DNA from: Chiloscyllium plagiosum
Taxonomy: Eukaryota
Assembly: GCF_004010195.1 (NCBI RefSeq)
Contig: NC_057718.1
Location: 49,377,239-49,441,238 of the forward strand
Direction: 5' to 3'
DNA: 64,000 bases
Part shown: positions 3,801 to 46,079 of the stretch, piece by piece
How positions within the stretch are numbered: the first letter of the stretch is position 1
Layout: every line of letters starts with the position of its first letter
Position numbers and translations under genes: made by a program
Notes under the pieces: generated by a model
The model's input: the letters and a program-made list of their open reading frames with translations, nothing else
What the model was told of the DNA's origin: nothing
The model's database searches: none

Positions 3801-3857
3801 ATTCCTGCACATATCTTCGAAAGGCATATTGCAGACTATTGTTGGACAGTTACTGAG

Positions 3858-3990
3858 GATTCCTGATGAAGGGCTTTTTCCCAAAAACGTCGATTTTCCT
3901 GCTTCTCGGATGCTGCCTGACCTGCTGTGCTTTTCCAGCACCTCACTCTCAACTCTAACCTCGAGCATCTGTAGTCCTCTCTTTCGTCTA
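3858..3990 (+). mobile_element. Penelope-derived short element with mutated hammerhead core
   Basis: ctgatga agggctttttccc aaaa acgtc (GAAA changed to AAAA), then the same body as copies at 25292 and 26361. Confidence 0.8.
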
Positions 3991-4560: not shown

Positions 4561-5883
4561 GAGATCAATGTTTTAGTCATGAATCTTTAGTGATGCAACC
4601 GATGGATTTGTCACCTCATGGATCATAATAAAATGTAGATCCGTGCACTTTGGCAAATTGATGGTGGACAGTCTATCTTTTTGAAAAATGCAAAAGGTTT
4701 CAGGTGAACTCCTGAGCAGCTATATTAACACTCAAGATGGATAATGCCAATGCGAGGATTGTTGAACCGATCGTGAGCAGTTAGCTTATCTTGTTTGGAA
4801 GGTACCAGGCAGTGCTAGTTTGTGGAGCACATCTCATGTACGATGTGTGAATGGAAGATATTTGCACTGATACTAATGCCAATTTTGGCATATTCTACAC
4901 ATTGACCATTCCATTTTGAGCATATCACTGAGATAGAGGTAAAGGCTCCAGGTTTTCAGATGGTGTCCATGTGATTTGTTAAGTTTATGAGATGCACTGT
5001 CTGACTGGGGTCTGCAAATTCCAACCTCTTGGAGTTTGTTGTCATATTTTTATATCATTTGTGGCACTTTGGAAACTCCTTGAGCATTATTCCATTCTTG
5101 TTTCTTCTTCACATGCTGGTGTGGAACATTATATTGTGCTTTGGGTTTCTCTGGGCAATCGAACTTCATGTGAATTTCAGATCAATGTGTTCTTGTAAAA
5201 TGCAGCTTTGCATACATGAGAAAACACTAGATCCTGTCTTAGTGTGTGTCACAGGCTACATTTTATACAAGGTTTGGATGTTCCACTGATCCTGTAATAG
5301 TTATTCCCGGACTAATCAATTGAAGGTGCTGCTGACCTGCTACAGTTGGTTGGAATTTGCATTCTTCTGTGGGCAAAGGCTCAATGGTGCATATTTTGGG
5401 TTTGCCCAGAATTGATTTTCTGAAGGATGTCATAGAGTTGGAGACAACTGCCAGCATCTCAGCTTTGTTGGCTTCAAGGAAATCGCCATTCCTATCTTTA
5501 TGATCATGAGTGGGTCAATTGTTTCACTTGGCTGTTGTCAGTGTGACACGAACCCATTTACCTGTATACTGAAATCATCTCAAACAGTTGGTTGATCTTC
5601 TAAAATCTGAAAACAAAATCTATTTTAAGTTTCTTTGCAGAATCTCAAACTTGCAGGATTCTTTTAAATTTTTCACTGCTGTCATTCTTTGTCAGTTATT
5701 TGCTGATTCAAAAAGTAGTGATTGACACTTTACTTAAACAATTTGAATTCTGACAATGTCAATGGACTGCCAGTGCATAGTGAGCTGTTTGCTTTCCATC
5801 TATTTTGTATAACTTTGTGTTCTCTAAAGTTCCAGTGTAAGAACCTGTATTTCAGTGCTGTGTAGTGTGTTTCTTTTTTGAAT

Positions 5884-5980
5884 GAAAGCTAGTGTTTTCA
5901 AATAAATCTGTTGGACAATAATCTGGTGTTGTGTGACTCTTGACCTTGCCCACCTCAGTCTCACACCAGCACCTCCACAA
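5884..5980 (+). mobile_element. Fragment of Penelope pseudo-LTR (family of 22738-22927), hammerhead 3' half only
   Basis: gaaagctagtg...caaataaatctgttggacaataatctggtgttgtgtga...cacaccagcacctcca aligns by eye with 22833-22926. Confidence 0.8.
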
Positions 5981-7810: not shown

Positions 7811-7879
7811 CCTGATCAGAGATGTCTGGAGCAGTGTGATATTGTCACTCCCCAGGAAACCTGGCCCAATTCATTGTAT

Positions 7880-8012
7880 ATTGAGAGTGTGATGCTGGAA
7901 AAGCACAGCAGGACAGGCAGCATCTGAGAAGCAGGAGAATCAACATTTCAAGCAGAAACCCCGATGAAGGGGCTTGACTCTGATCTCCAGCATCTGCAGT
8001 CCTCACTTCCTC
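7880..8012. mobile_element. Penelope-derived short element, rearranged (inverted halves), with ~14-bp TSD
   Basis: Body as 26234-26441; flanks ccaattcattgtat (7866-7879) and ccaatccattgtat (8013-8026). Confidence 0.8.
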
Positions 8013-8349
8013 CCAATCCATTGTATGTCAAGTATTAAAAAAGAAGGCTTGGTCAGTACATTTGTAGCAATGGAAATTGCCAGCGTCTATGGCAGGGGCT
8101 GCACAAAGATTTTGCTGAGTTAGGAATAAACAGCAATTCATTAAAATAATCAAAATGGGTGAGGGGTTTCTGGCGAATCAAACAACAATTAGCAAACCTC
8201 TGAATATTTTATAGAAATCGTTTGCTGCTTTTGGATTTTCCAGCGGAAATTGTGTCCAAAAACAGACTTAAGTTTTGTTTATGAGAAAATATGGCTCCAC
8301 CACATTACTCTGGAGCAGTAGAGTGTACAGTACAACTTGTTCATTGTTC

Positions 8350-13937: not shown

Positions 13938-13949
13938 TTATAAAAGAGT

Positions 13950-14070
13950 GAACACAGTGAATGCTGGAAATCTAGAGGAAACTCAGAAAGTGCTGAAAAT
14001 TCTCGGCAGGTTTGGCAGCATCGATGGAGAAGGAAACAGAGCTAATACTTCTAGTATAAGCTGACTTCCC
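13950..14070 (-). mobile_element. Old Penelope-derived fragment
   Basis: tgctggaaatct...ctcggcaggtttggcagcatcgatggaga...aacagagcta, similar to 36467-36535. Confidence 0.6.
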
Positions 14071-16059: not shown

Positions 16060-16910
16060 TAAAGGCGATTTAAAAAATGGTTAAAAATAAAATGACATTT
16101 GGAAAAGTATTGACTAATAGCTGGAAGTCTGCACAGATCATTTCAGAGGAAAATTATGTTTGATTAACATGGTTGAGTTCATGAACAAATTAATGGATAA
16201 GATGATTAGAGTTGCTAGTACAATTGATACCATGTGTATAGAGTCTGAAAAAAAAAAGCCAAATAAAGGCAAAATTAAAATGATTTCAGCACCACACATA
16301 CAAAATTGGCTAAGGGACAGAAAGCAATTTAATATAGAGAAGTATGAATTGATCCAATTTGGTGAAAATGATGAGGAATGGGAATACGTACTAAATGGTA
16401 CAATTTAAAGGGGATGCAGGAACATAGAGACTGAGAGATATGTTATCTACACAAATATTTGAAGGTGGCTGAATAAGTTGAGAAGCTTATTTTAAAAGCA
16501 GACAGGATTTTGGTTTTACTAGAAGGGGAATAAAGTACAGAAGCAAGGAAGCTTTGCTAAATATTTTTTTTAAAATTTAGTTAGCCACCAGTTGACATAT
16601 CTTGTTCACTGTAACAATTAGAAGGATGTTAAGATCTTGGAGGTGGTGAAAGAGAAAATTACCAGAAAGGCAGCAGTGCTAACCACTGTGCCACCGTGCC
16701 GCCCACTAAATTTTTAAATTTAGTTAGCCACCAGTTGGCATATCTTGTTCACTGTAACAATTAGAAGGATGTTAAGATCTTGGAGGTGGTGAAAGAGAAA
16801 ATTACCAGAATTTCAACTGCAATAATTTAGAGAAAGTAGAGAAATTGCTGAGATCAGACAAAAATAAAAGGTTTGATTAGAGATTTGATGGACGCATTCA
16901 AAATGTCAAA
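16060..16910 (+). mobile_element. Decayed CR1 RT/C-terminal region
   Basis: IQNWLRDRKQ, FNIEKYELIQFG...YVLNGTI, EHRDL-like motifs. Confidence 0.75.
16573..16810. repeat. 95-bp direct duplication (16573-16667, 16716-16810) flanking a 37-bp HE1 SINE head (minus strand, 16668-16704)
   Basis: Copies differ at one base (gttgacat/gttggcat); spacer aggcagcagtgctaaccactgtgccaccgtgccgccc. Confidence 0.92.
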
Positions 16911-17161
16911 ACAAGGGTTCCTCTGCATGCACGAAATACAGAGAATAAATAGTAAGATTGGAAAGTTACAGACATAAATTGCCAGCTGGGTTTATCATTT
17001 TGAGGCAATAATGGAACCTGGAATAAAAGTTCATGGTTACAAGGTGTTCAGATTACTTAAGGAATTGCACCTAAGTCACCAAACTCCTCCTGTTGCTAAA
17101 GATTTTGCATCACCTCAGCACATCCCAGTCAGAAAAACAAGGAAAGTCCTGAGCAAGTTAG

Positions 17162-17385
17162 AATCCCTACATTGTGGAAACAGGCCATTAGGCCCATTTA
17201 ATCCACACCAACCTTCTGAAGAGCATCCCACTCAGACCCACTGCCCCACCCTCTCCCTGCATTTCTCATGGCTAATCCACCTAACCTGCACATTTTCAGA
17301 CAGTGGGAGGAAACCTATGCAGACACAGGGAGAGTGTGCAAATTCCACAAAAACAGTTTCCCAATGTTGGAATCAAACCACTGAC
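17162..17385 (-). mobile_element. HE1-type SINE lacking head
   Basis: Similar to 61365-61615. Confidence 0.82.
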
Positions 17386-17389
17386 CTAC

Positions 17390-17535
17390 CATGTGGATTG
17401 GCCATGCCAAATTGCCCTGTAATGTACAGGGATGTTCAGGTTAGGTGGCTTAGCCATAATTAATATGGGCTACAGGGATAGCAGGGTGCAGGTGGTATGG
17501 TCCTGAGAGGGTCAGTGCAGACTCAATGGACTCAA
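17390..17535 (+). mobile_element. HE1-type SINE 3' half, opposite orientation to adjacent copy
   Basis: gtggattggccatgccaaattgccc...caggttaggtgg...gagagggtcagtgcagactcaatgg. Confidence 0.78.
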
Positions 17536-20307
17536 AAAAGAGAGAAAGGGGTATATTTTTGTTAAGGAGAGCACAGCACTATTGAAGACAAAGGATGTTT
17601 CAAAGGTTCATAGATAGAAACAATGTGACTTGAACTAAGGAATAAGAAGGATCAATTACATTGCTTGGTATAATCTATGGACACCTAACTAATGAAAAGA
17701 ATGTAAAGGAACAAATCTACAAGGAAGTTATGTACAGATGCAAAAATCAGAGCAATTACTCTTTAGAAACTGGGATTGTGGTCTTGTAGTGGACATCAAG
17801 GGGCAAGCACTCCTACTGTGTGTTCAGGAGATTTTGTGGCATCTGAATTCACAGATCAAATGCATGGGTGAGATAACCAAAAAGCCCAACATTCAAACAG
17901 GGCACCACATATTGTAGGTGAAAGATTACTTAAGGAATTGCACCTAAGTCACCCAAATTCTCCTGTTACTAAGGATTTTGTATCACCTCAGCACATTCCA
18001 ATCAGAAAACCTAGAAAATCTTGAGCAAGTTAGCAACAGCAGGATCAGCACATTCAATGGCCAGAGTTACAGTGTCTGTTACTTGTAGGAAAATCTGCTC
18101 CATTGAGTGGTTTAGTGATTATAAAATTGAGATTCTTTTCTCAGCATCACAATACATGCCTTGATAATCTGGAAAACAAACTTGTGCTGAAAGATAATCC
18201 TTATTCTATTTTATTGCTGCCAGCAATCTACGAGTTTCAAATAATCTAATTCTCTTTGGGAATTACTAGTTATGGGCTTTTAAAAAAAAAACTATTTACA
18301 CTCTCCTTAATGCAATACATGAATTAATGCCCCACTTGAAATCACTGGAATTTATATTAACATTAACTATTATTGTCAGTCCAGTCTTGACTCACACATC
18401 AAGTTACATATAACACTGATATTTATGAATTTTCAAATTGTAATGGAAGTGCCTCGCTTCAAAACCAACGCAGAAAATTCCTTTTCATCTCTAATAGAGA
18501 AATCACACTTTTTAGATACAGCACCTAAATTAATATTATAGATTTGCACTACTAACTGCCAGATGCAAATCAGGATTTCAGGAACTCCCTATCCCTTATG
18601 TACAAGTTTTTGGCTTATCAACTTGGTCAAGTAGAAGGCTAGATATTAAAAAATCTGATCTGTTTACTATTCATTTTGGATCAGGGTCCATGGTGGGTTT
18701 TGTAGCTTCTCAAAAGTATTCTGCACACGTTTATCCTGACATTATTCAGAATGTGGAAGATGTCAGAACAGTTGTAATATTAATGTAGAAAAGTAGGCAC
18801 AAGAGTCAATCTCACCTGCTGAGACTTTGTGCTCCTAATATTGTGCGCAGCATTAACTCTCCAACAGAATTCTTGCTGAGCAAGGGAAAACAAAACAAAC
18901 GGCTGTGTTGGAGCAAATTATTCTTTTGTAAATTTGCTGAAATGGTAAATATAAATTAACTTTAAGAATGGACATTGATTCACTGTTGTGAAATATTTTC
19001 TTTCGTCTGGATGGATAATGGAAATAAAAGAAACAGAAGAAAAACTTGTATGTTATGTGATTAGCATTAGCTTTATCAAGGATTTAGTTGTAACAGGCAA
19101 CAGGATGGTTAATTATTTATCACTTCAGCTGGTTAATTAGTTACTAACAAGCAAAAGTATCATGCAGATAGCAATGATAAAATATTTCATTTTCTTTCAA
19201 TAAGGTTGTGATTAGGCTCCTGACTAATATTACTCAGTAATAAGCAATGTGAGAACAACAATTTGAACAGTGCCTCTGTCATACTTGGCTGACACATTAG
19301 TGCGAACTAATGAGTAATTAAGTGATGTCACCCTTATTTTTAAGGGAGCAAAGTGGTGCCATGCAAAAGTGATGATAATGCCAGGCGACTAGGCAATTTT
19401 GAAAGGAAGGCTTTTTTTAAAAATAGCTGGGAGTGCTACTGATTGATTCGAAACATGAAGTGATGCTGGTGACAGTCACTGCTTCTGAGTCAGTGGATGA
19501 CATAAACCCACTATTTCATTGACAGGTTCTTCGACACAAGTGGCTTAGGCACGGGATCTGATTGTATTGCTATTAATGCCTTTATTCAGTGTCAAAGGAA
19601 GACAACAGCCAATTTTATTACTTGCAATCTAGTTCAATAGAACAAATGAATGATACAGTGTTGTATTCTGTTTAATATGGACTGGGAACATTAGGTTGAG
19701 ATTTGTGTCCTAATGCTGCCGCCATTTGATAACAATTTCTCACATTGATGGGTCTTAGCAATGCCAGGGAAGGTTTGTGGATGAACCTCTATCGCCAAGA
19801 AAGAGCCAACTGCTGAAGATATGGATCATTGCCAGCAGCTTCCAGGGAATAATTCTCTGCTTCCCTGGGGCATGAGCCACCCACTCAATTTCCTGCACTC
19901 GCCCTTCATCTTATTTCCTTTGTGTGACAGATAGCTCAGAGATATGCAAATACATGAACCCATGTTAGAATTAGGATGTAAATCATTAATGAAGTAGCTT
20001 TTCACCAATTTAACATCACCTAGCCCGAAACCAGGGCTAGAAATTGATAAGATTAAAAAAAGAACTGTGGATGCTGGAAATCGAAAACAAATCAAAAGTG
20101 TTGGAGAAACTCAATATCGATAGAATGAAATTGGTATGTCTCCCATCAATTCAACATGTATAATGAAGTGTTAAATGTATTATGTTGGCAAAGGAGCAGC
20201 CTATATTTAATCTGGCCCAGAAATTACGATCCACGAATATGATAATTAAGGACCGGTCAAATACTTACAGAATTGTCATTCAGAAATCTTCATTGGCTTC
20301 TGTTAAA

Positions 20308-21570: not shown

Positions 21571-22737
21571 ATAAGTTAATTTATAATTAATTAAAACTTT
21601 TCTGTGGAGACAGAATTATTAGGCTTTCCATAACTTCAACTTCATAATTATCCTTAGTCTTGCCTCTGACTCCAATGACCTCACTGCCCATATTCAATTC
21701 CATCTCCCTGTTTTAACTGCTCATGGCTAAAAATTTAAATCTGAAAAATAACTAGCTGCTTGTGGAGACACAGTTGGGAACATCAGATATTCCATATTAG
21801 ATAGGTAAGGATCAAGATTCCAGGTTGATATTAACCCCTTTTGGCTTGGGTTCGCTGAACTCACATAATGCAGAATCTAAGCCTAAGGAATGGATCAGAA
21901 TAATTTCTCCTACTTGCTGCTTAGTTCCAGCAACCTTCAGGCTCCATCCTCCTTTTTGATCTGTGGCAATACATAAAAATTAAGTTGCAAGAAAACTTCA
22001 AATTCCTATCCTATCTCTTATGACATTGAGTTCCACCTTCAACACATTACCTACTCCCCTCCCATACTGCTAAAACCCTTCATTATACCCAAATTATCTC
22101 CGACCATGATTTTCCAACATTATCAATCTACAGTGATCCACTCCATGTAAAATCCAATAGAAACAATGTTGTACTTTGCCCCTTGGGCAATACCGGAACA
22201 ATTTTCATTTGACTAATTTTAATTCAGTGAAAATCTCAGGTATTTTATAATCAGTATGTAATCCAGATTCTCTAAAATGCTGTCACCCACATTAAAACTT
22301 GCTCACCTCTGTTCTTTCAAATTCCAATTGAGATTACCTCAATGGATTGAATTTAATATTCCCACCTACATTTATAAATGCTTTGATTGTTGTGCTGCGA
22401 CTCCCTCTACAACCTCTTCCAACTACTTGTCGGCTTGGCCTTTTGCTGTTCTAACTTTTGCCTTCTTGTCATAAAGTAATTTGAATGCATTTCCTGCTAT
22501 GTCATGTCAACATAATGCCTCTAAATATATTTCAGGCCATTTACTGTTCTATGAATTCAGACTGTTGCTGAGCCAACTCTAAAAGTTAAAAGTGATTCGC
22601 AGATTGAATGTGGAAACAGTGATGAGTTGTTCAACCCGACTGAGGTCAATGGAAATGAAAATTGGAGATGTAAGGAAAGCTTCTGACTTGCTATCACTTT
22701 TCTCTCTCTTTCCATCTCTCTCACTTCATGTATAATG

Positions 22738-22927
22738 TTAAAAATCACACAACACCAGGTTATAGTCCAATAGGTTTATTTGGAAGCACTAGCTTTCAGG
22801 TGGACAACCACCTGATGAAGGAGCAATGCTCTGAAAGCTAGTGCTTCCAAATAAATCTATTTGACTATAACCTGGTGTTGTGTGATTTTTAACATTGTAC
22901 TCCCCAGTTCAACACCGGCACCTCCAA
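22738..22927 (+). mobile_element. Penelope-derived foldback element with 13-bp TSD
   Basis: 64-bp inverted arms 22736-22799 and 22831-22894 (2 mismatches); TSD ttcatgta(t/c)aatg at 22725-22737 and 22928-22940. Confidence 0.9.
22809..22843 (+). ncRNA. Minimal type I hammerhead ribozyme motif
   Basis: cac-CTGATGA-a-ggagc aat gctct-GAAA-gc-TA-gtg: stem I cac/gtg, 5-bp stem II, palindromic AGCT stem III, predicted cut after CUA (22840). Confidence 0.8.
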
Positions 22928-24189
22928 TTCATGTACAATGCTCTGAGAGAGTATGAACTTCCATTGGATTGGTGCAGGATTATGCTTGTCAAAGTACTGT
23001 ATTATAGCAAACCAGGAAACTCTTGCCATTAGGTGTATTTGGAAGGATTTACAGACTGAAAACCAAGTTGTTTGACCACGTTGTGAATGCACCTTCCTTG
23101 CCAATTCAATCCTCAACTGGTTCTTAAAATTGGGAGGTTCTAGCAGCAGTAAGGACACTATCACTGTGCTACAAAATTATCCCTGTCAAATTCAACACAA
23201 GTGATTTCTCACTTTCGGCAATGCAGAGAGCAAGGTGTTCTTTCCTCTTACAGGAGACAAATCGTGAAAACAAATATTTTGTTGCCCCGACTGAGATGAT
23301 ATGATGTACATTGAAGTACAGCGCAGGAACGAGAAGAACAATAAAAAATAGCTTACTTATAAAACAGATAAAGAGTGCAAAGAAGAAAGAAATACAAGTT
23401 TAATATATTTGACTTTTAATGAATGCTCATATTGTCTCCAGTCATACAGTACTATGACTCATAGTCAGCAACCCATTAGTTGCAAGATCAAAATTTCTTT
23501 CACCTCGATAGCCTTATATAACTATTAAGGATAAAGAAGTCACCCCCAATCTTGCCATCCTTCCAAACTTGACTCACTTGACCAACAGCAGAAAATACAA
23601 TAAATCAATTAATAACCACTAACCAATTAATCATATAATTTTAACAGTAATTTGATGGCCCAGTCCAATGTTACATTGCCAAGTTAATTCTAGAATGAAC
23701 TTTGTACTCTAAGCATTACAGAACAAATTTGCTAATATTGGTCCTGCAAAATAACACATTCTGCTGGCAGATCAAATGGAAACATTTTGCGGAAGCTATC
23801 ATGTGAGTAAGGGTGGGACTTGAATTTGCATAAGTTTCAGTGTGATCTAAGAACAGGCAAGATGACACACTGTCTTTTTTTAGATATTACCATTGTGACA
23901 GAAACAAAATGGGCTGACTTTCGGGCTGACTTTCATGCTCCTCAGACATGAAGGACTGAGAAAATTGTTGCCCGAGATTATGAAGTAAACCAGCATGATG
24001 GTTTACTGACCCAGTTTTTGGCATTCATTGTTTTGGCTGTTGCAAGTTTATGCCTGGGAAGGTTGTCTGCTCTTGCAAGGTAGACAGGCAATAAAACTCA
24101 TGCAGTGCCAAGTTGAGTATGGATTAAGAAGGCTAACTGGAATTTGATATAAAGCAACTTAAGGCTGCTTTTAGTTTCTCAGTTATTCT

Positions 24190-25291: not shown

Positions 25292-25390
25292 TTTATTCCT
25301 GATGAAGGGCTTTTGCCCGAAACGTCGATTTTGCCTGTCCTCGGATGCTGCCTGAATTGCTGTGCTCTTCCAGCACCACTGATCCAGAAG
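25292..25390 (+). mobile_element. Penelope-derived short element
   Basis: Same body as the right arm of 26234-26441; possible ctccct TSD. Confidence 0.82.
25295..25330 (+). ncRNA. Minimal hammerhead ribozyme motif
   Basis: attc-CTGATGA-a-gggc tttt gccc-GAAA-c-GTC-gatt: perfect 4-bp stem II, palindromic ACGT stem III, weak stem I. Confidence 0.72.
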
Positions 25391-26233
25391 CTCCCTAAAA
25401 GCCAAGTTAACCATGCATTTCATCTATGGATGAGATGCTACCTGTTCTAATCAAATTACTATGGAATGCCAAACTGAGATAAATCTTCCATCAATTTCCA
25501 GATGTGGAAAATTGGAAAAAGTGGAATGTATTTTTCTTGTACTTCAAACTCATTGAAAACCATCTACTGAAGAGATTGTTAGGTCAGACTCTCCCACCTT
25601 TTTGATGAAAGGGAAATGAATGAGTGTAGTTCTGCAAAAATAAAGGAAACTAGGAGAAAAATAAATATGTAATATAATAGAAACAACAGTTTTTGACCTG
25701 TTGTAATTTTTATTTCCTGCATACGGGATGCATAAATGCTAAATATTTGAAGTAGCAACAGATGACCAACTAGTTTTAGTCAAGCTGATGTAATCCCAAA
25801 GGAACAAACACCAAAACAGCCCTGACATGTGTAAATATGTAATTATACAGTTTATGTGCTTTACAGCCAGTATATAGAATAAGTATGTTAAATATGACCT
25901 TGAAGGATATTTGTGAAGTGTAGCCATTGAAAACAGAAGTATTTGGAAAGATTACATAGAAAAGTGATTTGTGGAAAGATTGGCTGTGAGAATAAGGATA
26001 TACAATGCTCCTTCATTTGCATGGGAATAAAAACAAATTGAATGCATAGAAACTGAAGGCAAAATCTAAATATGAAAGGCTGTTCCAAATTTAGGATCTG
26101 TTTTATATAATCTCTTAGACAGAATAGTGATGATTATCCTCTAAGTGGGCTAACCATCTTATTTCTGAGCTTAGGACTGTATGGCCCAGTATCTATCTCT
26201 GTTATAACAGAACCAGGGATATATCAAAACTAA

Positions 26234-26441
26234 CGAGGAGAAAGTGAGGACTGTAGATGCTGGAGATCAGAGCTGAAAATGTGTTGCTGGAAAAGCGCAG
26301 CAGGTCAGGCAGCATCCAAGGAACAGGAGAATCGACGTTTCGGGCATAAGCCTGAAGAAGGGCTTATACCCGAAACGTCGATTCTCCTGTTCCTTGGATG
26401 CTGCCTGACCTGCTGCGCTTTTCCAGCAACACATTTTCAGC
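26234..26441. mobile_element. Penelope-derived foldback element with perfect 15-bp TSD and hammerhead core at the apex
   Basis: 81-bp arms 26272-26352 and 26361-26441 (1 mismatch); TSD atatatcaaaactaa at 26219-26233 and 26442-26456; CTGAAGA 26352-26358, GAAAcGTC 26372-26379. Confidence 0.93.
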
Positions 26442-28309
26442 ATATATCAAAACTAAACCAACCTTTGTGATCTGAACTGGACAGTCGTTCCCACATAGTC
26501 TTGTATGAACTTTTATAATCAATCCAAAAGTAACAAAAACATTGGGCTGAATCTTATTTTTTTCCAGCTAGGTCCAAGTTGTTTTATATTCTTGTAAAGG
26601 TTTGTTGTTGTGAGAACTAATGAGTTCACTCACCACATCTGACCAAACTCATCACATTAATTGCCTACCTCATTCCTATGGTATCTCTTCCATCCAATTT
26701 TGCCACCATATTACCGCCCACTTTTCCCACAACAATTCACTACCATCTGGATAACCTCCAAAATTCCAGCACCCCTTGTGCCTGCCCCATCTTTGAAAGA
26801 CTACGTGCATCCAGATAAAGTGTTGACAATCTGGCATTGTCCCTCACCAATAAACACATGGCACATCATGAAGCCACACTGCCCATAACACATTGGAGGT
26901 CATGGCTGACACTTCCTCACATGTACACCTCACTCTCTCACCCTGGTTGAGCTGTACTGTTGAACTGGCATGTACACGTCTTTCCCTCTCCCAAGCTACA
27001 TTCTGTTTAAGTATCTTTTAAATTAGTGCTACTACAGGGACAGTGACCATTACTAAGCATGAAAGTGATCCCTCAGCTGTCAGCTGTGATTTAGGAATCA
27101 TGACTAAAAAAATGGAACAACCAATGGTTGTCCACTGCTCCCAAACTCCTCTTTTGAAAGTGGTTGTCAATGAGGTTCTATCTCGTATGTAGCACAGTCA
27201 TTAGGCATCATTAAGTGCTTAACTATAAATCAGTTTGGGACAATCTAAGATCTTATATAGCACGTGTAAATGCAAGTGCTGCTATTTTCTTTTACAGAAG
27301 TCAAAGTGTTTTCCACTTAGAACAATAGTTTAACACAAACCCATGGGAAAAATAATGAACAAATTGCACTACCCTTTTTGTGGTTTGATGTAATCATTTT
27401 TGGCAATATTTGCTGGCTATTTCTAACTGCAAGAGCTGACCTTGTAGTTTTAACCTCCATCTCACCCTGACCAAATGAATTGCATCATGTCACTCACAAT
27501 AAGTGTGAATGTTTGATAACTCATGATGAAATGACAAATTGCTTAATATTCCTGCTAATCTTGGACTTTAAGTTACATTCTCGAATTCTTGTATTCCGGT
27601 TAAAATGGATAAACATGCTTTACTTTAACATAAACTGTATGAATAACTCAATCTTGCAATCCTTTCTGCAAAGGAAAAAGCATTTTGAAACATCCAGAAA
27701 TGTTACAAAAATGTAAATTAAGAAAAAAAATGTTTCTCTAAAAAAATGTTAAATATTTATCTTGCAAGCACACATTCTTAAATTTTTGAGACTTTTACCA
27801 AACTCCATCAGACTTGTGTGTCAGGATTCCAGCATAACCCATTGGAAAAAGGCAAATATCATTGGTTCAAGGAGTTTTTTCCAGGCTTTTAAGGGATGTA
27901 AGCACTCAATGCTCCTTACAATGCTTAGCAATGGAACTGTTTGGATGGGACTTTACTATGTTGTAGTTTCAGCATCCTTTACATAGTTGGACTTAGCACT
28001 TGATTGGAGGTTAGTATTTTATGAGAAAATGTATGTCAGCCTCCAAATGAATGGCACCAAAGTGGTTTAAGATAGATATGTGATTGAGAAAAGAGCTTTT
28101 CAAACAATAAATTGAAATGGACTTTCCTTCCAAGAGATTATGGAAATGGATATTAAGTGAATGTTGGGAGGACTTGTATGATCTACCTTCAATGACATCA
28201 ACAGGGAGTATACCAGACTGCTTAAATAACAGCACCTCATTGTTTTTAGATTACTTTATATCAGGCCATTTTTTTCAAACCAACACAGTTTGATAAAACA
28301 GGGAAACAA

Positions 28310-34477: not shown

Positions 34478-35389
34478 TACCCATGATGATGGCCTCAACC
34501 GGGATCCTGGGCTCAGAACACATGACAGGTGACCCCGCTACATTATACACTCACTCACATGGACACTACACATAGACTCTCTCACACAAACACACATACA
34601 CACTCACACAGACTCTCTCTCATACGCACAGGCTCACACTCTCTCACAGACATTTACTCCCTCACACTCGCACACACACTCTCTCAAGCACACACACTCA
34701 CGTGCATGCTCTCATAGACATATACTTCCTCACACTCACACACCCTCCATCTCAAACACACACACACTCCCTCAACAGTGTGCACATACACACAAACACA
34801 CACATACACACTAGCTCCCTCTCCTGCTGCATCTCTTGCCCCTCCCCACACACACATAAATATATGGGGTGAATTTGCATTCGCAGATATATTCTATTTT
34901 GTTCAAAAAGCACATAATCTATGTATAGCCAGACGATGTGGCAATTTATAGTTTCCTACCTTGAAAATAAAACCAGTCTGACTCCAGTTTCAGATACAAG
35001 TAGACTTGAAACATGGCCTCACATCTAAAATGCATTGTCTGACCTGAGGTGTTACCTTTATTCTGATAAAACTTGAAGTTACCTTGGGTCAGTGACTTGA
35101 AAAAAATGCTGGGATTAATAAATTAATCAAAGGAAATCTGCACCTCCATGCTAACTGATTGAAGACTTAATAGCCATTTAGGTTTGTTCAATACATTTGC
35201 ATAACCTGTATGACACTATGATATTTTACTTATAAGTTCTGTATCTGATGTATTTTCTCTCACTAGCTGCCTGAGGAAGGAGTGGGAGCTTTGAAAACTT
35301 GTGGTTCAAATAAACCTCTTGGACAATAACCCGGTGTCATTTGATTTTTGACTTCATCCACCCCACTCCAACACTGGCACTTCCATATC
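34478..35389 (+). mobile_element. 5'-truncated Penelope-like element: ORF C-terminus, CA-rich 3' UTR, pseudo-LTR with eroded hammerhead; 11-bp TSD
   Basis: Begins THDDGLNRDPGLRTHDR* (GLN motif ending GIY-YIG domains); ctgagga...gaaa at 35271-35296; TSD tttcagtatga at 34467-34477 and 35390-35400. Confidence 0.85.
34545..34860. repeat. Imperfect (CA)/(CT) microsatellite within the Penelope 3' UTR
   Basis: Directly visible. Confidence 0.9.
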
Positions 35390-35953: not shown

Positions 35954-36950
35954 GGTCATGATCCCAGCTGATGTTATTACTGGACAAGTCAGATTCCAGA
36001 CTGAAATTCCATTTGAAAAAATCATGTTTTGTTCTGCTTTTATTTAGTGACATGTTCTTTCATTGATACACAAACATGCAATACTGCAGGTCTGTTTTAA
36101 CAATAAAACAAACATTTATTATACAAAAGAAATAAAGATAGAATAGAACAAACCGAGCTGCTTACATATAACACAAATTGAAAGATTTTGAAACGTTGCA
36201 AAAGTACAATATTCCATCTGTCGCAAAGCAAACCTTCACAGTACTCAAACATCAGAGAGAATTCCCTCCTCTATCACATGGAAATGTTTGACTTAGTTGC
36301 TGCTTTGAATTTCTGGACTTGGGAGTTTGATAGCTTTTTCCTTGAGTATTCATACAACTGAATTTATACTTTCTCAGATTCAAATAACCCCTTCAGGGCT
36401 GGAACTGAATGTTTCTGGTTTGGAACGTTTAAATTAAAAATCTTTTAATTTGGTTAACCTATTTCTAACAAAAATAGAAATTGCTGGAAAAACTCAGCAG
36501 GTCTGGCAGCATCAGTGGAGAGAAAACAGAGTTAAGGTTCTGGGTTCAATAATTCTTTATCAGAACTGTTCTGAAAAAAGGGTAACTGGACCAGAAACAT
36601 TAAATTTGTTTTCTCTTTGCTGCCAGACTTGCTGAATTTTTCCAGCGATTTCTGTTTTTGTTTCTGATTTCTAGCATCCATAATTCTTTTTAAACGTATT
36701 TTTAAGATTTTTGAACTAACTCCTTGTTCCTGGAGAACTGTTTCATATATCAAACTTCAGTCAAGACATCTGCAAACTGAAACCAAGAAGTACCAAGCTG
36801 TGGATGCTTTGTTCCCACAAGCAAATAAAAGTCAACTCATCTTTCCAATTGAAAATATGTTAATGCTCTTCAATGTTTATTCTGTTTGCTCTTAAACTCA
36901 CTCCATGAAAATTAATTCGCGTTAGCACTCCAGGAACTACCTCCGTCACA
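35954..36950 (-). mobile_element. Possible solo LTR (~770 bp plus nested insert)
   Basis: Ends gtcatga... and ...cgtcaca, flanks ttgt/ctgt, minus-strand aataaa ~85 bp from the left end. Confidence 0.35.
36467..36690. mobile_element. Older Penelope-derived foldback element with eroded hammerhead
   Basis: Inverted arms aaaaatagaaattgctggaaaaactcagcaggtctggcagca and tgctgccagacttgctgaatttttccagcgatttctgttttt; ctgaaaaa...gaaacatt at 36571-36601. Confidence 0.8.
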
Positions 36951-37243: not shown

Positions 37244-38754
37244 AATAGACAATAGACAATAGTTTCAGGGGTAGGCCATTCTGCCATTCGAGCCTGCACC
37301 ACCATTCATTATGATCACGGTTGATCATCCTCAATCAGTATCCTGTTCCTGCCTTACCTCCATAACCCTTGATTCCACTATCCTTGAGAGCTCTATCCAA
37401 CTCTTTCTTAAACAAATCCAGAGACTGGGCCTCCACTGCCTTCTGGGGCAGAGCATTCCAACAGCCACCACTCTCTGGGTGAAGAAGTTTCTCCTCATTT
37501 CTGTCCTAAATGGCCTACTCCTTATTTTTAAGCTGTGTCCTCTGGTTCGGCACTCACCCATCAGCAGAAACATGTTTCCTGTCTCCAGAGTGTCCAATCC
37601 TTTAATAATCTTATACGTCTCAATCAGATCCTCTCTCAGTCTTCTAAACTCAAGTCGCTCCAATCTTTCAGCATAAGGTAGTCCCGCCATTCCAGGAATT
37701 GACCTCGTGAACCTACACTGCACTCTCTCAATAGCCAGAATGTCTTTCTTCAAATTTGGTTTCCAGAACTGCACACAATATTCCAGGTGCAGTCTCACCA
37801 GGGCCCTGTACAGCTACAGAAGAACCTCTTTGCTTCTATACACAACCCCTCTTGTTATGAAGGCCAGCATGCTATTAGCCTTCTTCACTACCTGCTGTAC
37901 CTGCATGCTTGTCTTCATTGACTGATGTACGAGAACACCCAGATCTCTTTGTACTGCCCCTTTACCTAACTTGACTCCATTTAGGTAGTAATCTGCCTTC
38001 CTGTTCTTATCACCAAAGTGGATAACCACACATTTATCCACATTAAACTGCATCTGCCATGCAGCTGTCCACTCACCTAACCTGTCCAGGTCACCCTGTA
38101 ATCTCCTAACATCCTCCTCACATTTTACCCTGCCACCCAGCTTTGTATCATCAGCAAATTTGCTAATGTTCCTATTAATATACAATATATATATCATTAA
38201 TATATATTGTAAAAAGCTGCGGTCCCAGCACTGATCCCTGCGGTACCCCACTGGTCACCACCTGCCATTCCAAAAGGGAGCCGTTTATCACTACTCTTTG
38301 TTTCATGTCAGCCAACCAATTTTCAATCCAAGTCAGTACTTTGCCCCCAATACCATATGCCATAATTTTGCTCACTAACCTCCTATGTGGGACTTTATCA
38401 AAGGCTCTCTGAAAGTCCAGGTACACTACATCTACTGGATCTCCCTTGTCCATCTTCAGAGTTACATCCTCAAAAAATTCCAGAAGATTAGTCAAGCATG
38501 ATTTCCCCTTCATAAATCCATACTGACTATGACCTATCCTGTTAATGCTATCCAGATGTGTCATAATTTCATCCTTTATAATAGACTCAAGCATCTTTCC
38601 CACCACTGAGGTCAGACTAACTGGTCTATAATTTCCTGCTTTCTCTCTCCCACCTTTCTTAAAAAGTAGTATAACATTAGCCACCCTCCAATCCGCAGGA
38701 ACTGATCCTGAATCTATCGAACTCTGGAAAATAATCACCAACGCATCCACGATC
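37244..38754 (-). mobile_element. Young CR1 ORF2 RT to 3' tail
   Basis: ORFs 38175-38756, 37814-38251 and 37331-37798 (NYRPVSLTS, YLDFQRAFDKVPH, GVPQGSVLGP, KFADD, LEYCVQFW); (ctattgt)n tail. Confidence 0.97.
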
Positions 38755-39560
38755 AACTCTGTGGGAAGCTAGAAATGATTGCTGGGCCTCTTGTTGAGAT
38801 ATTTGTATCATCGATACTCACAGGTGACGTGCTGAAAGACTGGAGATTGGCTAACGTGGTGCCACTGTTTAAGAAGGGTGGTAAGGACAAGCCAGGGAAC
38901 TATAGACCGGTGAGCCTGGTGTTGGTGGTGGGCAAGTTGTTGGAGGGAATCCTGAGGCACAGGATGTACATGTATTTGGAAAGGTAAGGACTGATTAGGG
39001 ATAGTCAACATGGCTTTGCGCGTAGGAAATCACGTCTCACAAACTTGATTGAGTTTTTTTGAAGAAGAGGATTGATGAGGGCAGAGCGGTAAACTTCAGT
39101 AAAGGCATTCGACAAGGTTCCCCATGGGAGACTGATTAGCAGGGTTAGGTCTCTTGGAATACAGGGAAAACGAGCCATTTGGATATAGAACTGGCTCAAA
39201 AGGTAGAAGGGTGGTGGTGAAAAGTTATTTTTCAGACTGGAGGCCTGTGACCAGTGGAGTGCCACAAGGATTAGTGCTGGATTCACTGCTTTTTATCATT
39301 TATATAAATGATCTGGAGGTGAACAAAGGAGGTATAGATAGTAAGGTTGCAGATGACACCAAAATTGGAGGTGTAGTGGACAATGAAGGTTACCTCAGAT
39401 TACAATGGGATCTTGATCAGACAGTCCAATGAGCTGAGGAGTGGCAGATGGACATTAATTTAGATAAAATGCAAGGTCCTTCATTTTGGGAAAGCAAATT
39501 TTAGCAGGACTTATAGACTTAACGGTAAGGTCCAAGGAAGTGTTGCTGAAGAGAGACCTT
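38755..39560 (+). mobile_element. CR1 RT fragment of a different subfamily, opposite orientation
   Basis: IAGPLVEIF...NYRPVSL, GVPQGLVL...KVADDTKIGG; no 3' tail. Confidence 0.93.
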
Positions 39561-40423
39561 GTTCTTTAAAAGCTTCCCAGCCCTCCGTTTTCCCACTCAT
39601 CTTTGCTATGTTATACTTTTTCTCTTTTGGCTTTATATGTTTCTTAACTTCCCTCGTCAGCCACGGCTGCCCATGCCTCCTCATAGGATCTTTCTTCCTT
39701 TTTGGAATGAACTGATCCTGCATCTTCTGCATTATACCCAGAAATATCTGCCATTGTTCCTTCACTGTCATCCTTGCTAAGATATTGCACCATTGAACTT
39801 TGGCCAGCTCCTCCCTCATAGCTCCATAGTTCCCTTTATTCAACTGAAATATTGTCACTACCGATTGTACCCTCTCCCTTTCAAATTGCAGATTGAAGCT
39901 TATTGTATTATGGTCACTACCTTCTAATGGCTCCTTCACTTCGAGGTCCCTGATTTCTGGTTCGTTGCACAATACCAGATCCAGAATTGCCTTCTCCCTG
40001 GTAGGCTCCAGCACCAGCTGTTCCAAGAATCCATCTCAGAGGCACTCCACAAATTCTCTTTCTTGAGGTCCATCACCATCCTGATTCTCCCAGTCTACCT
40101 GCATGTTGAAATCCCCCATAACAACTGTAGTAACATCTTTGCGACAGGCCAATTTCAGCTCCTTATTCAACTTACACCCTATATCCATACTACTGTTTGG
40201 GGGCCTGTAGATAACTCCCAAGAGGGTCTTTCTACCCTTAAAATTCCTCAGCTCTATCCATACTGACTCTACATCCCCTGATTCTAGGTTCCCCCGTGCA
40301 AGGGACTGAATATCATCCCTGAACAACAGAGCCACCCCATCCCCTCTGCCCGTCAGTCTGTCCTTATGATAGTACGTATAGCCTTGAATATTCATTTCCC
40401 AGGCCCTGTCCACTTGAAGCCAC
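39561..40423 (-). mobile_element. Young CR1 ORF2 APE and linker (5' part of the 37244 element)
   Basis: ORFs 40036-40461 and 39511-40026 (GVIYRPP, VMGDFN, LDLVL, SDHN, PWLT). Confidence 0.96.
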
Positions 40424-40739
40424 CTCAGTACTTGTGACAATAAGAAATCAAATAAAATCACACAACTTACATCACATTGTTTTAAAGTGCTAAAAGTGTT
40501 ACTCGTTTTTGGGACCTCTGATTAAATGTTCTTAAGTACTTCTTGAATTAGTGAGTTTTGAGAAGATTTGCAGCTCAGGTTGAAGTTTTGATGTAGGTTT
40601 TGACTTTTTAATTTTATTGTACAAAAATTACAGTCCAAGACTAATATTCCAAATCAGAAATTTAAAAGTAGAATCCTAACTTGATGAATTGCAATTCACT
40701 CAAACTTTGTATGAATTGTCCAAAATCAGTGCAGTCATA

Positions 40740-43572
40740 AATAACTAAAGATAGAAGGTAAAGAGCTTTTGTGTTCATTTTAACCAACAGGACAGGAGGG
40801 ATGGGAAAAAAAAAGTGGTAGGGTGGCACTGTTAATAAGATCTGAGAGGACAACTGTGAGAAATGATCTAGATTTTAATGATGTAGAGTCCAGTTTAAAA
40901 TAGGTAAAAGAAGACATTAGTAGGAATAGTGCACAGACCCCCAAAGAGTATTGACTTTGTGGGAAAGGTTGTAAATCAACAAATAATAGGAATATGTAAA
41001 AAATAACAGGACAATGATTATGAGTGATTTTAATCTTTATGTTGATTAGGTTAATCAAATTGGAAATGATAGCTACGATAGCAAATTCATTGAGAGCTTT
41101 ACAGATAGTTTCCCAGAGTAATATGCCTGGAACCAACCAAGGAGAGGCTATCTTGGGTTTGGTGATAGGTAATGAGACAGGTTTAATAAATGAGTAAGAG
41201 ATGCCCAAGGAAGTAGTGACCATAACATGATAAAATTTTATATTCAGGTTCAAGAGGGAGAAACCTGGGTCAGAAACAACTGTGATTAACTTACATAAAG
41301 AGAATTACAATAAAATGAAGATAGAGCTAGCTAAACTGAGCTGGTTGGATAGATTAACAGGAATGGCGGGTAAGCAGGCAGTGGCAAACACTTAAAGAGA
41401 TTTTTCATGACTCTCAGCAAAAATACATCCCAGAAAGGAGGAAACATTCTAAGAAAGGGATAGACCAACCATGGCTAACCAAGTAAGTTAGGGACAATAT
41501 TATGTATTAAGAAAAAGCACATAAGGCGGCCAAAGTCAATGGTAGCCTCAAAGACTTGGATAAATTCAGAAACCAGCAAAGGAGGATGAAAAAGATAATC
41601 AAGAGTGGGAACATAAAGTATGAGAGAAAACTAGTGAGGAATGTAAAAGCTGACAATGAGCTTCTTTAAATCTATGAAACAGAAGTGAGAGGTCAAAGTT
41701 GACATAGGTCCCTTAGAAAATGAATCTGGGGAGACAGTTTTGGAAATGGCAGTGGAGATAAAGGGATATTTTGCATCAGTCTTTATGGTGAAAGATACTT
41801 CGCACATTCCATTAACTCTAATGAATACAGAGAAGGAATTAAATACCATCACTATCACTAAAGAAATAGCATTAGACATACTAAGGGGGCTAAAGGCAGT
41901 TAAGTTCCTTGGCTGTGATGGCTTGCATCCTAGGATTCTAGAAGAAGTAGCTACAGAGATAGTGGGTGCATTGGTTGCAATTTTCCAAGCTTTCTGGAGA
42001 AATCTCAGAGGATTGGAAAGCTGCTAATCTAACATCCCTAATCAAAAAGGGAATGAGGTAAAAGAGGGGTAAATTTAGGTTGATTAGCCTAATATCTATT
42101 ATTGGAAACAATTATTAAGGAAGTAATATTAGAACATTTGGAAAATCATGTTCTAATCAAACAGAGTCAGCTTGGCTTTATGGAAGGGAAATTATGTCGG
42201 ACAACTTATTTAGAGTTTTGAGCTGAAAATGTGTTGCTGGAAAAGCGCAGCATCCAAGGAGCAGGAGAATCGATGTTTCGAGCATGAGCCCTTCTATTAA
42301 TTAAAGTTTTTCAAGGAAGTCTCAATTAGAGTGGATGGATGGGAACCAGTAATTGTGTTGTACGTAGAATTCCATGAAGGCTTTTGTCAAAATACTATTC
42401 AAAGGTTAAGTCATTAGATAAGAGCCCACAATGTTAAAAGTAGTATATTGACATTGACAGGGAATTGGCTCTTGGGCAGGATAAGAATGGGTTAAGGGGT
42501 TCTTTTTCAAGTTGGCGACCTGTGACCAATAATGTTCCACAGGTATCAGTGTTGGGACTGAAATTGTTTACTGTATATATGAATGACTTGGAGGAAGGAG
42601 GTGAACGTACTGTAGCCTAATTTGCAGACTCCAGCCAAATATGTAGACAACACAAAACTTTGGTGGAAAGGCAGGTTGTCAGGGGGAGAAGACCAGTTTA
42701 CAGGGAGAATATTATTAGGTTAAGTGAGTGGGCAAAAAGTTGGCAAATGGAATATAACTTGGGAAACTACAATGTTGTTCATGTTTTTTAAGGGTGAACA
42801 AAAGAACATTATTATTTAAATGGAAAAAAAGATGCAGAAAGCTACAACACAAATGCACTTGGAGGTACGTCTGCACAAAACACAGAGCTGGAGATATGTA
42901 CACCATCTCATCAAGACGTCAAATGGAATGTTGGCCCTTATTTCAAGGGGGTTGGAGGGTAAGAGTAGGGAAGTCTCGCTGTATCTGTTCAAGGTGCTTG
43001 TGAGATCACATCTAGAGTACTGTGAGCAGTTTTGGTCCCCTTATTTGAGGAAAGATATCATTTCATTGGAAGCAGTTCAGATAATCTTCACCAGGATGAT
43101 CCCTGGAATGGGGGATTGTCTTAACAGCAAAGATTAAACAGGCTGGGATTCTACCCATTGGAGTTTAAAAGAATGAGAGCTAATTTTATTGAAATAAATT
43201 GAAAATGTCAGGGTCTTGACAGTACAAGTGCTGAGAGGATATTTCCCCTTGTAAGAGTTTGGAACCAGAAGGCATAGTCTCAGAATAAAGTGTTATCAAT
43301 TAAGTCAAGACATGAGGAAGAATTTCTTTTATGAGGGTTGAGCGTCTATGGAACTTCTTACCACAGACAGCTGTGGGGGCAGAGTCCTTGTGAATATTTA
43401 AGGATGAGACAAATAGATTCTTGATCTATAAGGGAATTAAGGGTTAAGGACAGGGCAGGAAAGTTGACATGAAGAATGTTGGATTGGCCATGATGCCCAT
43501 TAAAGGTAGAGCAGGCCTAAGGGGCTGAATGGCCTACTCCTGTTACTAATTGTTAAGGTCTTATGGTTTTAT
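40740..43572 (+). mobile_element. Decayed near-full-length CR1 ORF2 with 3' tail
   Basis: Ordered APE, PWLT, GCDGLHPRIL, VPQVSVLG, KFAD-like, LEYCEQFWSP; tail atggcctactcctg...cttatgg. Confidence 0.92.
42220..42295 (-). mobile_element. Penelope-derived fragment nested in CR1
   Basis: Matches the left arm of 26272-26352 with a deletion; imperfect tta(g/a)agtttt duplication. Confidence 0.82.
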
Positions 43573-43589
43573 AAATCTAAGCCATGACT

Positions 43590-44020
43590 CTCTTGGAGGT
43601 ATGTTCACCTCTAAGCTATAAGACTCTGAAATAAGTCTGATTCCAGGGCTTGAATGCAGAAAGCTAGATTGACTCTTCAGCTCAGTACTGAGACAGTGCT
43701 AAACTTTTGGAGATGTTGTCTTTCAGGTGAAGTGCAAAACCAAGTTAGCATCTGCCTGCTCAGATGAATATATGAAAGAGCAAAAGGCACTAAGTTTATG
43801 AAGAGCAGGAGAGTTATAATTGCTGTCTTGGTTAATATCTATTCCTCAATCAACATCACAAAATAATGAATTGTCATCATATTACTATTTGTGGGAGTTG
43901 GTTGTGTGCAAATTGCCTGTTTCCAATATCTCATCAAAAGTATTCATTCGCTGCAAAGTGATTTGAGATGTCTGCTGATCATGAAAATCTAATGTTTAAA
44001 TTATATTTCTTTCTTTTCAT
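43590..44020 (+). mobile_element. Deu-domain SINE (SacSINE1/AmnSINE1-like)
   Basis: cagtactgagacagtgct...gtctttcaggtga...gaagagcaggagagtt...tattcctcaatcaacatcac...tttgtgggagttggttgtgtgcaaattg, recalled as the Deu core. Confidence 0.8.
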
Positions 44021-44689
44021 TTTTATAAAAGTTATGCTCCTGTTGCAGCCAAATTTTAACTGAGCATTTCAAATAGGTTAGTTTTAATAATTAAAGGATA
44101 GATTCTGAGTTTGTACTATAATGTAAAACAGATGATAGTTACCTGATCATCTGTACCACCTTTCTCCCAATTTTTATTTCCATTGAATTCCCCATTTTAC
44201 ACTGTCACACAATAACAAGATTTACTTCGAAGGTTGTAACAATAATATATAGAAACAGTTATATGGTTCTACAGTCAAACTTTAGGGAGTTTGGTACAAA
44301 ATTAACAAGAAGGACCTCTATTTAGTAATTTCCAGATTGCTGTTAGTGTCTTGTCAAGTAAATGTGTATAAATATGAGGATAAAGCAGGTAAAAGTGTAG
44401 CTGATTTTGTTGAGACAGATTTTGATTTCCTGGGCATTGGAACTGAATGCAGGTATAGAAGGTCTGCAGTTACCTTCCATATGGTACCTGAACACAACTA
44501 AGAACAATGTCATTGAAAGGCAATTTATGAGTGTTATTGGGAACAGTTTAGAATAATTTGGCACAGTTTTGGACCAGAAGGTAATAACAGAGTAAGATAT
44601 TAGAAGAGGCAGCTAGCACTAAAATTGGAAACCTTGGGATATTAGCTTGTTTCAGATTAAAGGGGGAGCCAATAAAGTTTAAATTGTCT

Positions 44690-46078
44690 CCATCCTCTTG
44701 TCTAAAAGAGGGAGATAGACAAAAGGCAGATAACTCTCGGACCATTAGCGTAACTTCTGCAGCGGGGAAAATGCTTGAATCAGTAATCAAGGAAGAAATA
44801 GAGAGACATCTGGATAGAAATTGTCCCAATGGGCAGCCGCAGCATGGGTTCATGAAAGGCAAGTATAATTTACCAGAATTCTTTGAGGACATATGAGTCC
44901 AGTTGACAAAAGGGAACTAGTGGATATGATGTATGTGGATTTGCAGAAAGCATTTGACAAGGTGTCACACAAAAGGTTGCTCTGTAAGTTAAAGGTGCAA
45001 AGCATCATGGGTATAAAAGATTAGCTAACTAAAAGAAAACAAAGAGTGCCAATTAATCAGTGTTTTTCCGGTTGGTGATTAGTGGCTAGTGGTGTGCCTC
45101 AGGGATTGGTGTTGGGACCGCAATTGTTTACAATTTACATAGATGACTTAAAGTTGAGGACCAAATGTAGTGTGTCAAAGTTCACAGATGACACTGAGAT
45201 GAATGTTAGAGCAAAGTGTGCAGAGGATACTGAAAGTCTGCAGAGGGATGTAGAAAGGTTAAGTGAGTAGGCAATGGTCTGGCAGATGGATCACAATGTT
45301 GGCAAATGTGATGTCATCCATCTTGGTGGGAATACCTGCAAAATGGATGATTATTTAAATGGTGAAAAGTTGCAGCTTGCTGCTATGCAGAGGTATCTGG
45401 ATTCTATGTGCATGAATCACAAAGCATTGGCTTGCAGGAGCAGCAGATAATTAAGAAAACAAATGGAATATTGTCCTTCATTGCCAGTGTTTAGGTTGTG
45501 CTGCAGCTGGATAGGTGAGACCACACATGGAGTACTGCATGCAGTTATGGACTCCTTACTTGAAAAAGGATGCACTGGCATGGAGAAAGTGCAGAGGAGG
45601 TTCAACAGGTTGATTCCAGAGTTGAGAGGGTTAGATTATGAGGAGAGATTGAATAGACTGGGACTATACACATTGGAATTTAGGAGAATGGTGGGGGGGG
45701 TGGTCCTTATAGAAACATATTAAATTATGAAGTGAATAGATAAGATAGAAGCAGAGAAGTTGTTTCCACTGGCGGGTGAAACTAGAACTAGGGGGCATAG
45801 TCTCAAAATAAGGGGAAGCAGATTTAGGACTGAGGAACGTTTTCATTTAAAGAGTTGTCAATCTGGGGAATTCCCTACTCAATGAAACAGTTGAAGCTAC
45901 CTCATTAAATGTTTTTAAGGCAAAGTTAAATTTTTGAACAGTAAATGAATTAAGGATTATGGTGAGTGGGTGAGTGAATGGAGCTGAATCCACGAAAAGA
46001 TCAGCCATGATCAAATTGAACAGCAGAGCAGGCGTGAGGGTCCAGATGGCCTACTCCTGCTCTTATTTCTTATGTTCT
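44690..46078 (+). mobile_element. CR1 RT to 3' tail, decayed
   Basis: QHGFMKGK, SGVPQGLVLGPQLFTIYIDD, KFTDD, EKVQRRF; tail atggcctactcctgctcttatttcttatgttctt. Confidence 0.93.
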
Positions 46079-46079
46079 T

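Follow-up and report, generated by a model that had tools for sequence, protein, structure and literature searches.

A 190-bp head-to-head insertion in Chiloscyllium plagiosum, likely a truncated Penelope-type element end, with a hammerhead motif predicted to be locked

Introduction

At positions 22738–22927 of the 64,000-nt stretch of Chiloscyllium plagiosum DNA analysed here (the window, to which all coordinates refer), a short inverted repeat carries a hammerhead ribozyme motif together with an antisense copy of part of itself. The question raised by this locus is whether such an arrangement works as a device or is a by-product of insertion. A sequence-only reading had described two exclusive folds, a long hairpin and a ribozyme, and had proposed that the inverted arm could neutralise the cleavage of host transcripts or act as a switch.

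Insertions of Penelope-type elements (PLEs) often bear an inverted 5′-truncated copy and a 30–40-bp tail (PMC8557442, PMC3846280, PMC2377424, PMC8969392). The junction palindromes were interpreted as self-priming by Arkhipova et al. (PMC3846280), and the way in which PLE inverted ends form was called undefined by Craig et al. (PMC8557442). In the case of Poseidon of Anolis (PAc; Frangieh et al. 2024, PMC11167929), the protein cuts and extends both target strands, and the spacing between the two starts of reverse transcription (RT) equals the tail.

With a probability of about 0.87, we consider 22738–22927 to be an old 190-bp head-to-head insertion of a high-copy repeat, likely a 5′-truncated PLE end, in which the hammerhead is predicted to be locked and is likely inert. 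The single locus is of little weight, as its insertion type has been published and the copy is decayed. It is a clean specimen for the question of how PLE inverted ends form, because the target-site duplication (TSD), the tail, the arm end and the centre are all readable.

Materials and Methods

One RNA run (X21) and three DNA runs (X5 from organism A, X9 from organism B and X18 from organism C), four of the 24 listed runs, were searched at a likeness of 85. RNA folding was assessed by enforcing the hammerhead helices and comparing the resulting ensemble energy with that of the free ensemble; tertiary contacts and proteins are ignored by this procedure. The census of related stubs relied on profile searches seeded from the copies in the window. 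Pfam scans covered 279 open reading frames (ORFs) in all: 150 in one scan (149 of the 168 with at least 50 aa starting in 8–37 kb, plus one) and 129 of the 218 with at least 52 aa outside 10.7–37.2 kb.

Results and Discussion

Architecture of the element

The 190-nt element lies between two TSD copies, at 22725–22737 and 22928–22940. The 13-bp TSD claimed by the sequence-only reading is present, but its match is imperfect (12/13). The final 8 nt of the left copy double as a continuation of the inverted arm. The TSD sequence itself is nearly palindromic, and the target site is surrounded by a short inverted repeat, CT-rich at 22713–22721 and GA-rich at 22944–22951.

Based on the minimum free energy fold, the true palindrome axis is a 4-nt loop at 22804–22807. 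The family sequence upstream of 22804 is unlike the window in 258, 313 and 306 contigs and in 497 reads; therefore, the sense copy has its 5′ end there. To the left of the axis, the alignment places an inverted partial copy of the element end on the minus strand (22738–22803), which begins at the equivalent of 22808, lacks 19 nt and finishes at the usual arm end of the family. When the two halves are aligned about the axis, the left arm mirrors the right arm except for exactly these 19 nt, which are the antisense of most of the hammerhead core and of stem II. The gap junction (22796–22799) is inside a 4-nt repeat, the sense-arm CTGA copies of which lie at 22812–22815 and 22831–22834.

The inverted arms extend over 70 nt with 96% identity (22730–22799 and 22831–22900). 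They had been given as 64 bp long; the arms stand, but between the TSD copies they measure 62 nt, 2 of them mismatched, and the 8 nt that overlap the left TSD copy come in addition. The RNA of the element folds at −121 kcal/mol (z = −17.8), and none of 200 shuffles folded as well. On the plus strand, a tail of 35 nt (22893–22927) is found on one arm only and matches the 30–40-bp PLE tail described in PMC8557442 and PMC11167929. The element is reduced to the last 124 nt and contains no ORF.

The earlier interpretation of the locus as an inverted partial pLTR, a product of Penelope insertion, is borne out by this arrangement, since the head-to-head arms, the 35-nt tail and the TSD fit the published architecture. 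On the same grounds we infer membership of the Penelope type. The inverted-pLTR insertions of endonuclease-bearing PLEs (PMC3846280, PMC8557442) likewise show a head-to-head inverted 5′-truncated copy with a junction palindrome, a 30–40-bp tail at one end, a TSD of variable length and microhomology-bounded deletions. In contrast to them, the present locus retains only the last 124 nt, without an ORF, and shows 8/8 homology between the target and the arm end.

The hammerhead motif

A minimal type I hammerhead motif is located on the plus strand at 22809–22843. Stem I has 3 bp (CAC at 22809–22811 with GTG at 22841–22843). The core CTGATGA (22812–22818) is followed by a bulged A22819 and by stem II, GGAGC/AAT/GCTCT (22820–22832), which has 5 bp and is closed by a G-U pair. 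Next comes GAAA (22833–22836), and stem III is formed by the palindromic AGCT (22836–22839); cleavage is predicted after A22840. The motif keeps the type I order CUGANGA ... GAAA ... UH. The minus strand of the element contains no CTGANGA core. A longer stem I (22801–22804 with 22846–22849) was considered as a family feature and dropped because 22801–22803 belong only to the inverted arm of this copy.

A minimal-hammerhead descriptor modelled on PMC4209133, and composed after the motif was seen, matched at two places in the window, 22812 and 35271; both belong to the family of this element, and only the former has a palindromic stem III. In 200 dinucleotide shuffles, no match with a palindromic stem III was obtained, and loci of any type averaged 0.005. 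The full core with stems I and II and a palindromic loop-less stem III, as reported from the sequence, is accordingly present and goes far beyond the shuffle expectation. In the proposed hammerhead search, the descriptor matched; an Rfam scan of the window returned five matches at E ≤ 1, none of them a hammerhead.

The word "complete" holds for the letters of the motif, but not for its helices: stem I has only the 3 bp given above, and at 10.1–11.1 G22820 pairs with T22832 (G-U) in place of the conserved G10.1-C11.1. Other family copies carry G-C at this position, as seen at loose contig ends at 22796/22797. Antisense family sequence continues through stem II at 22797 (247 and 300 contigs) and at 22796 (203, 308 and 313 contigs), with C at 11.1; the 19-nt gap and the G-U pair therefore belong to this copy.

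In its type I fold, its extra nucleotide between 9 and 10.1 (the bulged A22819), its short stem I and its palindromic loop-less stem III (AGCT), the motif agrees with the minimal PLE hammerheads of PMC4209133, which also occur mostly as solo copies of truncated PLEs, and the earlier assignment to the dimer-type minimal hammerheads is supported. Dual motifs on opposite strands are known for these hammerheads as well (PMC4209133). It differs from them in the G-U pair, the 3-bp stem I, the 5-bp stem II and the covering by its own antisense. The letters of CTGATGA, of GAAA and of the cut triplet are all preserved, though the insertion is common to three species; chance permits this, but selection would have the same outcome.

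Family copies and age of the insertion

The family is very high-copy, with 41,766, 57,165 and 55,236 matching contigs in the three DNA runs and the depth concentrated on 22707–22965. Arm ends pile up at 22737 (790, 1489 and 1518 contigs) and 22738 (234, 465 and 461); the one-sided tail of 35 nt is thus a property of the family. Foldback centres vary between copies, since 391 family joints were counted and many different centres occur among the 15 listed. Among the contigs of organisms B and C, four (records 2, 3, 4 and 18) span the centre with only 3–7 gap letters and 7–13 other letters, and similar foldback centres may therefore recur. A scan of metagenomes with a 23-nt stretch of the element gave 0 matches.

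The right junction is bridged at single-copy depth by contigs of organism B (record 23, 22864–23098) and organism C (record 8, 22864–23280); therefore, the insertion predates these species splits. At the left junction, the contigs of B and C have only 19 and 26 bases inside the element, below the 31-base rule, and in run X5 (organism A) neither junction was bridged among the pieces listed. No empty target site was seen in organisms B and C, because both also carry the insertion. The flanks differ at 15/454 positions in organism B and at 17/451 and 23/390 in organism C, and the two arms differ from each other at 2/62, too few sites for a strong conservation test. At the level of the sequences compared, these data show the insertion in three species and, on few sites, no extra conservation.

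RNA evidence and host context

In 13 million records of X21 (about 2% of the run, a poly(A) single-cell library that is weak for cleavage and intronic read-through), 2439 reads matched, and the depth exceeded zero in 7 of 30 bins, every one of them on the element. Only 11 of the 2439 reads were at least 99% alike to this copy. In this subset the flanks had no RNA depth, and no pile of RNA starts or ends was seen at any place, the library being an unfair test of cleavage. The suggested check for A-to-I editing gave no support: the A>G and T>C places of the RNA run occur in the DNA runs too and are differences between the family and this copy.

On the plus strand, AATAAA (22850–22855) is followed by a GT-rich stretch, and family RNA has poly(A) at the equivalent of 22870. 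Poly(A) behind 22870 was found in 243 reads and poly(T) before the mirror place 22760 in 269, both at the level of the family and not specific to the locus; poly(A) begins 15 nt downstream of the AATAAA in the arm, and internal priming is possible. The source loci of the poly(A) lie elsewhere, as follows from the 11 reads close to this copy. A subfamily represented by 349 RNA reads has ATTAAA instead of AATAAA. Stubs of this kind may supply host transcripts with poly(A) sites. Among the matches listed in a literature search, which left subscription papers mostly outside its coverage, none reported PLE poly(A) sites, and the accessible part of PMC2377424 does not contain "polyadenyl".

As for the surroundings, the Pfam scan of 279 window ORFs returned no host exon, although short or poorly conserved exons would escape it, and no PLE domain (telomerase-like RT or GIY-YIG). 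The only matches passing the curated cut-offs were a LINE-type RT (38178–38768) and an endonuclease (40039–40521).

Masking of the motif and alternative explanations

The true axis at 22804–22807 entails that the ribozyme is masked on both sides. In the predicted fold, 22798–22803 pairs with 22808–22813 and covers the 5′ strand of stem I and the first core bases, while 22831–22892 pairs with the long arm, so that only GAUGA and stem II are left free. The claim that the left arm pairs with GAAA and the cleavage site is supported by this predicted fold. "Half-masked" is right in that respect, but the masking also takes in the 5′ strand of stem I and the first bases of the core. The partial character of the masking looks accidental from the alignments: the inverted arm lacks exactly the 19 nt between the CTGA repeats, and other copies run through this segment.

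Could the hairpin and the ribozyme be the two states of a conformational switch, flipped by a helicase, by editing or by antisense RNA? Stem II and GAUGA do stay outside the long helix, and removal of the arm lowers the cost of the hammerhead-compatible fold to only 2.7 kcal/mol. In the whole element, however, this fold costs 27.6 kcal/mol relative to the free ensemble, a gap that is too large for a switch of the riboswitch kind with two near-equal folds. The gap is 10.7 kcal/mol for the earliest co-transcriptional form (22738–22843), 21.8 for a transcript ending at 22850 and 10.5 when the small central hairpin alone is kept. The outer arms are paired in both kinds of fold, and the idea of two exclusive folds is not upheld. 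For the motif without its arm, a double hammerhead would lie 4.3 kcal/mol above two monomers; for whole elements it would lie 55.3 kcal/mol above two hairpins. There is also no nearby partner, since the closest copies of the family lie at distances of 12.5 and 16.8 kb, one of them without the core and the other with changed letters. The missing pile of RNA ends also speaks against a switch, in a library ill-suited to show one. A literature search, with subscription papers mostly outside its coverage, found no report of a masked-hammerhead switch. Taken together, we regard a switch as hardly credible. The folding model predicts instead that the hammerhead is locked permanently in the hairpin, and the palindrome is likely an ordinary inert by-product.

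Selection might still act on the lock itself. Foldbacks made by the PLE mechanism could be preferentially retained in host transcripts if silencing of the hammerhead, and perhaps also of the poly(A) signal, by the antisense arm protected the pre-mRNA. The masking is predicted to be complete, introns and exons of Xenopus show a depletion of non-LTR retrozymes (10.64898/2026.07.22.740005), and the poly(A) site used by the family RNA would be buried in the hairpin. On the other hand, single minimal hammerhead motifs showed no cleavage in PMC4209133, and dimers were weakly active; the hammerhead of the Anolis PLE cleaved only with the PLE protein and was dispensable for insertion, and no RNA-seq reads ended at its cut site (PMC11167929). 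Furthermore, 6 of the 10 stubs in the window are armless, including the one at 25299 with CTGATGA and GAAA intact, Pfam revealed no host gene on the window ORFs, the flanks lack RNA depth, and the arms are conserved no better than the flanks. The proposal that the inverted arm neutralises cleavage keeps its predicted masking, but the inactivity of published monomers and the armless stubs give no sign that it is needed or selected. If true, foldbacks selected as silencers of ribozymes and poly(A) sites would be a new truce between host and element; nothing here indicates so, and we hold it to be very unlikely. A non-autonomous unit moving as a 190-bp palindrome, like a MITE or a retrozyme, is a shade less likely still. 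It would account for the short, terminal-looking inverted arms, the TSD, the huge copy number and the four contigs spanning the centre with small gaps. Nevertheless, MITEs have terminal inverted repeats and uniform copies; here the arms are not terminal, the tail is one-sided, both further family copies of the window have a single arm, the centres and gaps vary among copies, and the TSDs of 13–15 bp differ in sequence among insertions. Non-LTR retrozymes are also small non-coding PLE-derived units with type I hammerheads, but they are tandem with at least two motifs (10.64898/2026.07.22.740005), whereas the present insertion is inverted and dispersed, with a single motif. A link to the Eulor/UCON hairpin repeats was considered and rejected; in the accessible text of PMC5753468, only UCON13 is given as a Penelope relic. 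Based on its sequence, 22738–22927 would behave like a dead-on-arrival PLE end: it has the architecture of a PLE insertion and lacks the marks of a retrozyme, a MITE or a switch. Its hammerhead motif is presumably inert.

Proposed course of insertion

For this Penelope-type insertion, we suggest the following course, the order of the steps being presumed. The element endonuclease would cut the target with a 13-nt stagger. The cDNA from the family RNA would start at the tail end (22927) and stop at 22804, 5 nt upstream of stem I. In the same event, a mirror copy of the same template would be made, from 22892 back to the equivalent of 22808; finally, the mirror arm would lose the 19 nt between the CTGA repeats, either at the joining step or afterwards. 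Both arms carry the same non-family letter (22771 and 22859), the family letter making up 92% and 94% of the X5 depth at these positions; both arms therefore derive from one template. As reported for PAc (PMC11167929), the template would be uncleaved RNA, the copy here running through the cut site.

What primed the mirror arm is less clear. Priming by the other cut strand has, in our estimate, close to an even chance, and priming by the cDNA folding back on itself is a reasonable candidate at rather below even odds. Positions 22933–22940 of the right TSD copy are complementary to 22893–22900 at 8/8 letters (p ~1.7 × 10⁻⁵ at a fixed place). Contigs of organisms B and C span this junction. When the family letters are used instead, the homology amounts to 8/9 over 22893–22901. 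In addition, contigs from other loci track the window to 22931–22934, 4–7 nt into the right TSD copy. These matches suggest that homology may have assisted priming or capture at both ends.

It is even conceivable, though doubtful, that both 3′ overhangs of the 13-nt staggered cut primed RT at two fixed sites 35 nt apart, aided by microhomology. This would account for the arm, the tail and the TSD at once, and the family copies of these genomes, tens of thousands in number, would allow it to be tested. It would also be unlike the homology-free initiation seen in vitro, PAc initiation being reported as non-homologous to the cut DNA (PMC11167929), in contrast to the 8/8 homology at the short-arm junction here. 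Against it, a fold-back strand captured by an overhang would leave an identical trace, and a second foldback in the window (26219–26456) shows no homology between its TSD and the arm continuation. No report of Penelope twin priming was found in a literature search that left subscription papers mostly outside its coverage. In L1 twin priming, reportedly described by Ostertag and Kazazian in 2001, the second target strand is said to prime on the RNA via microhomology, which gives an inverted 5′ piece. That piece is said to be a different part of the RNA, whereas here the same part is duplicated and a palindrome results.

Related stubs and other features of the window

The census found 10 stubs of three hammerhead-type families in the window. 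Four of them are foldbacks or their remnants (22738, 26234, 36466 and 7880), which makes the foldback a common outcome in this window; a one-sided internal loss is seen in two of the four. The six single-armed stubs of the same three families are at 3855–3990, 5883–5977, 13946–14057, 25295–25380, 35267–35385 and 42211–42294.

The foldback at 26219–26456 is young and belongs to the second hammerhead family. It has 81-nt arms with 1 mismatch, a 35–38-nt tail and a perfect 15-bp TSD; its core at 26352 (+) lacks the 5′ strand of stem I and is mostly paired. A remnant of a foldback of the same family occupies 7865–8026, with a TSD of 14/15; about 70 nt are missing from its sense arm, GAAA and the cut site among them. 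Right at the target of this insertion, the segment 7834–7878 aligns, with gaps, to the tail and the TSD of the element at 22738 (the local score is 34, the 99th percentile of 2130 tiles being 23), and it is perhaps a decayed family stub that was used as a target. The foldback at 36466–36680 is symmetric, old and decayed; it represents a third, related family and has no convincing TSD.

GC-rich tandem arrays with 33-nt and 30-nt units and long open frames are located at 709–1774; no Pfam match was obtained for them, and an open frame of 291 aa lies in this region on the minus strand (589–1461). LINE-type fragments that include RT and endonuclease domains are clustered over 37300–47900. Finally, direct duplications were found at 16568–16810 (100 nt, 98%, spacing of 143 nt) and at 17050–18033 (about 110 nt, 88%, spacing of 873 nt).
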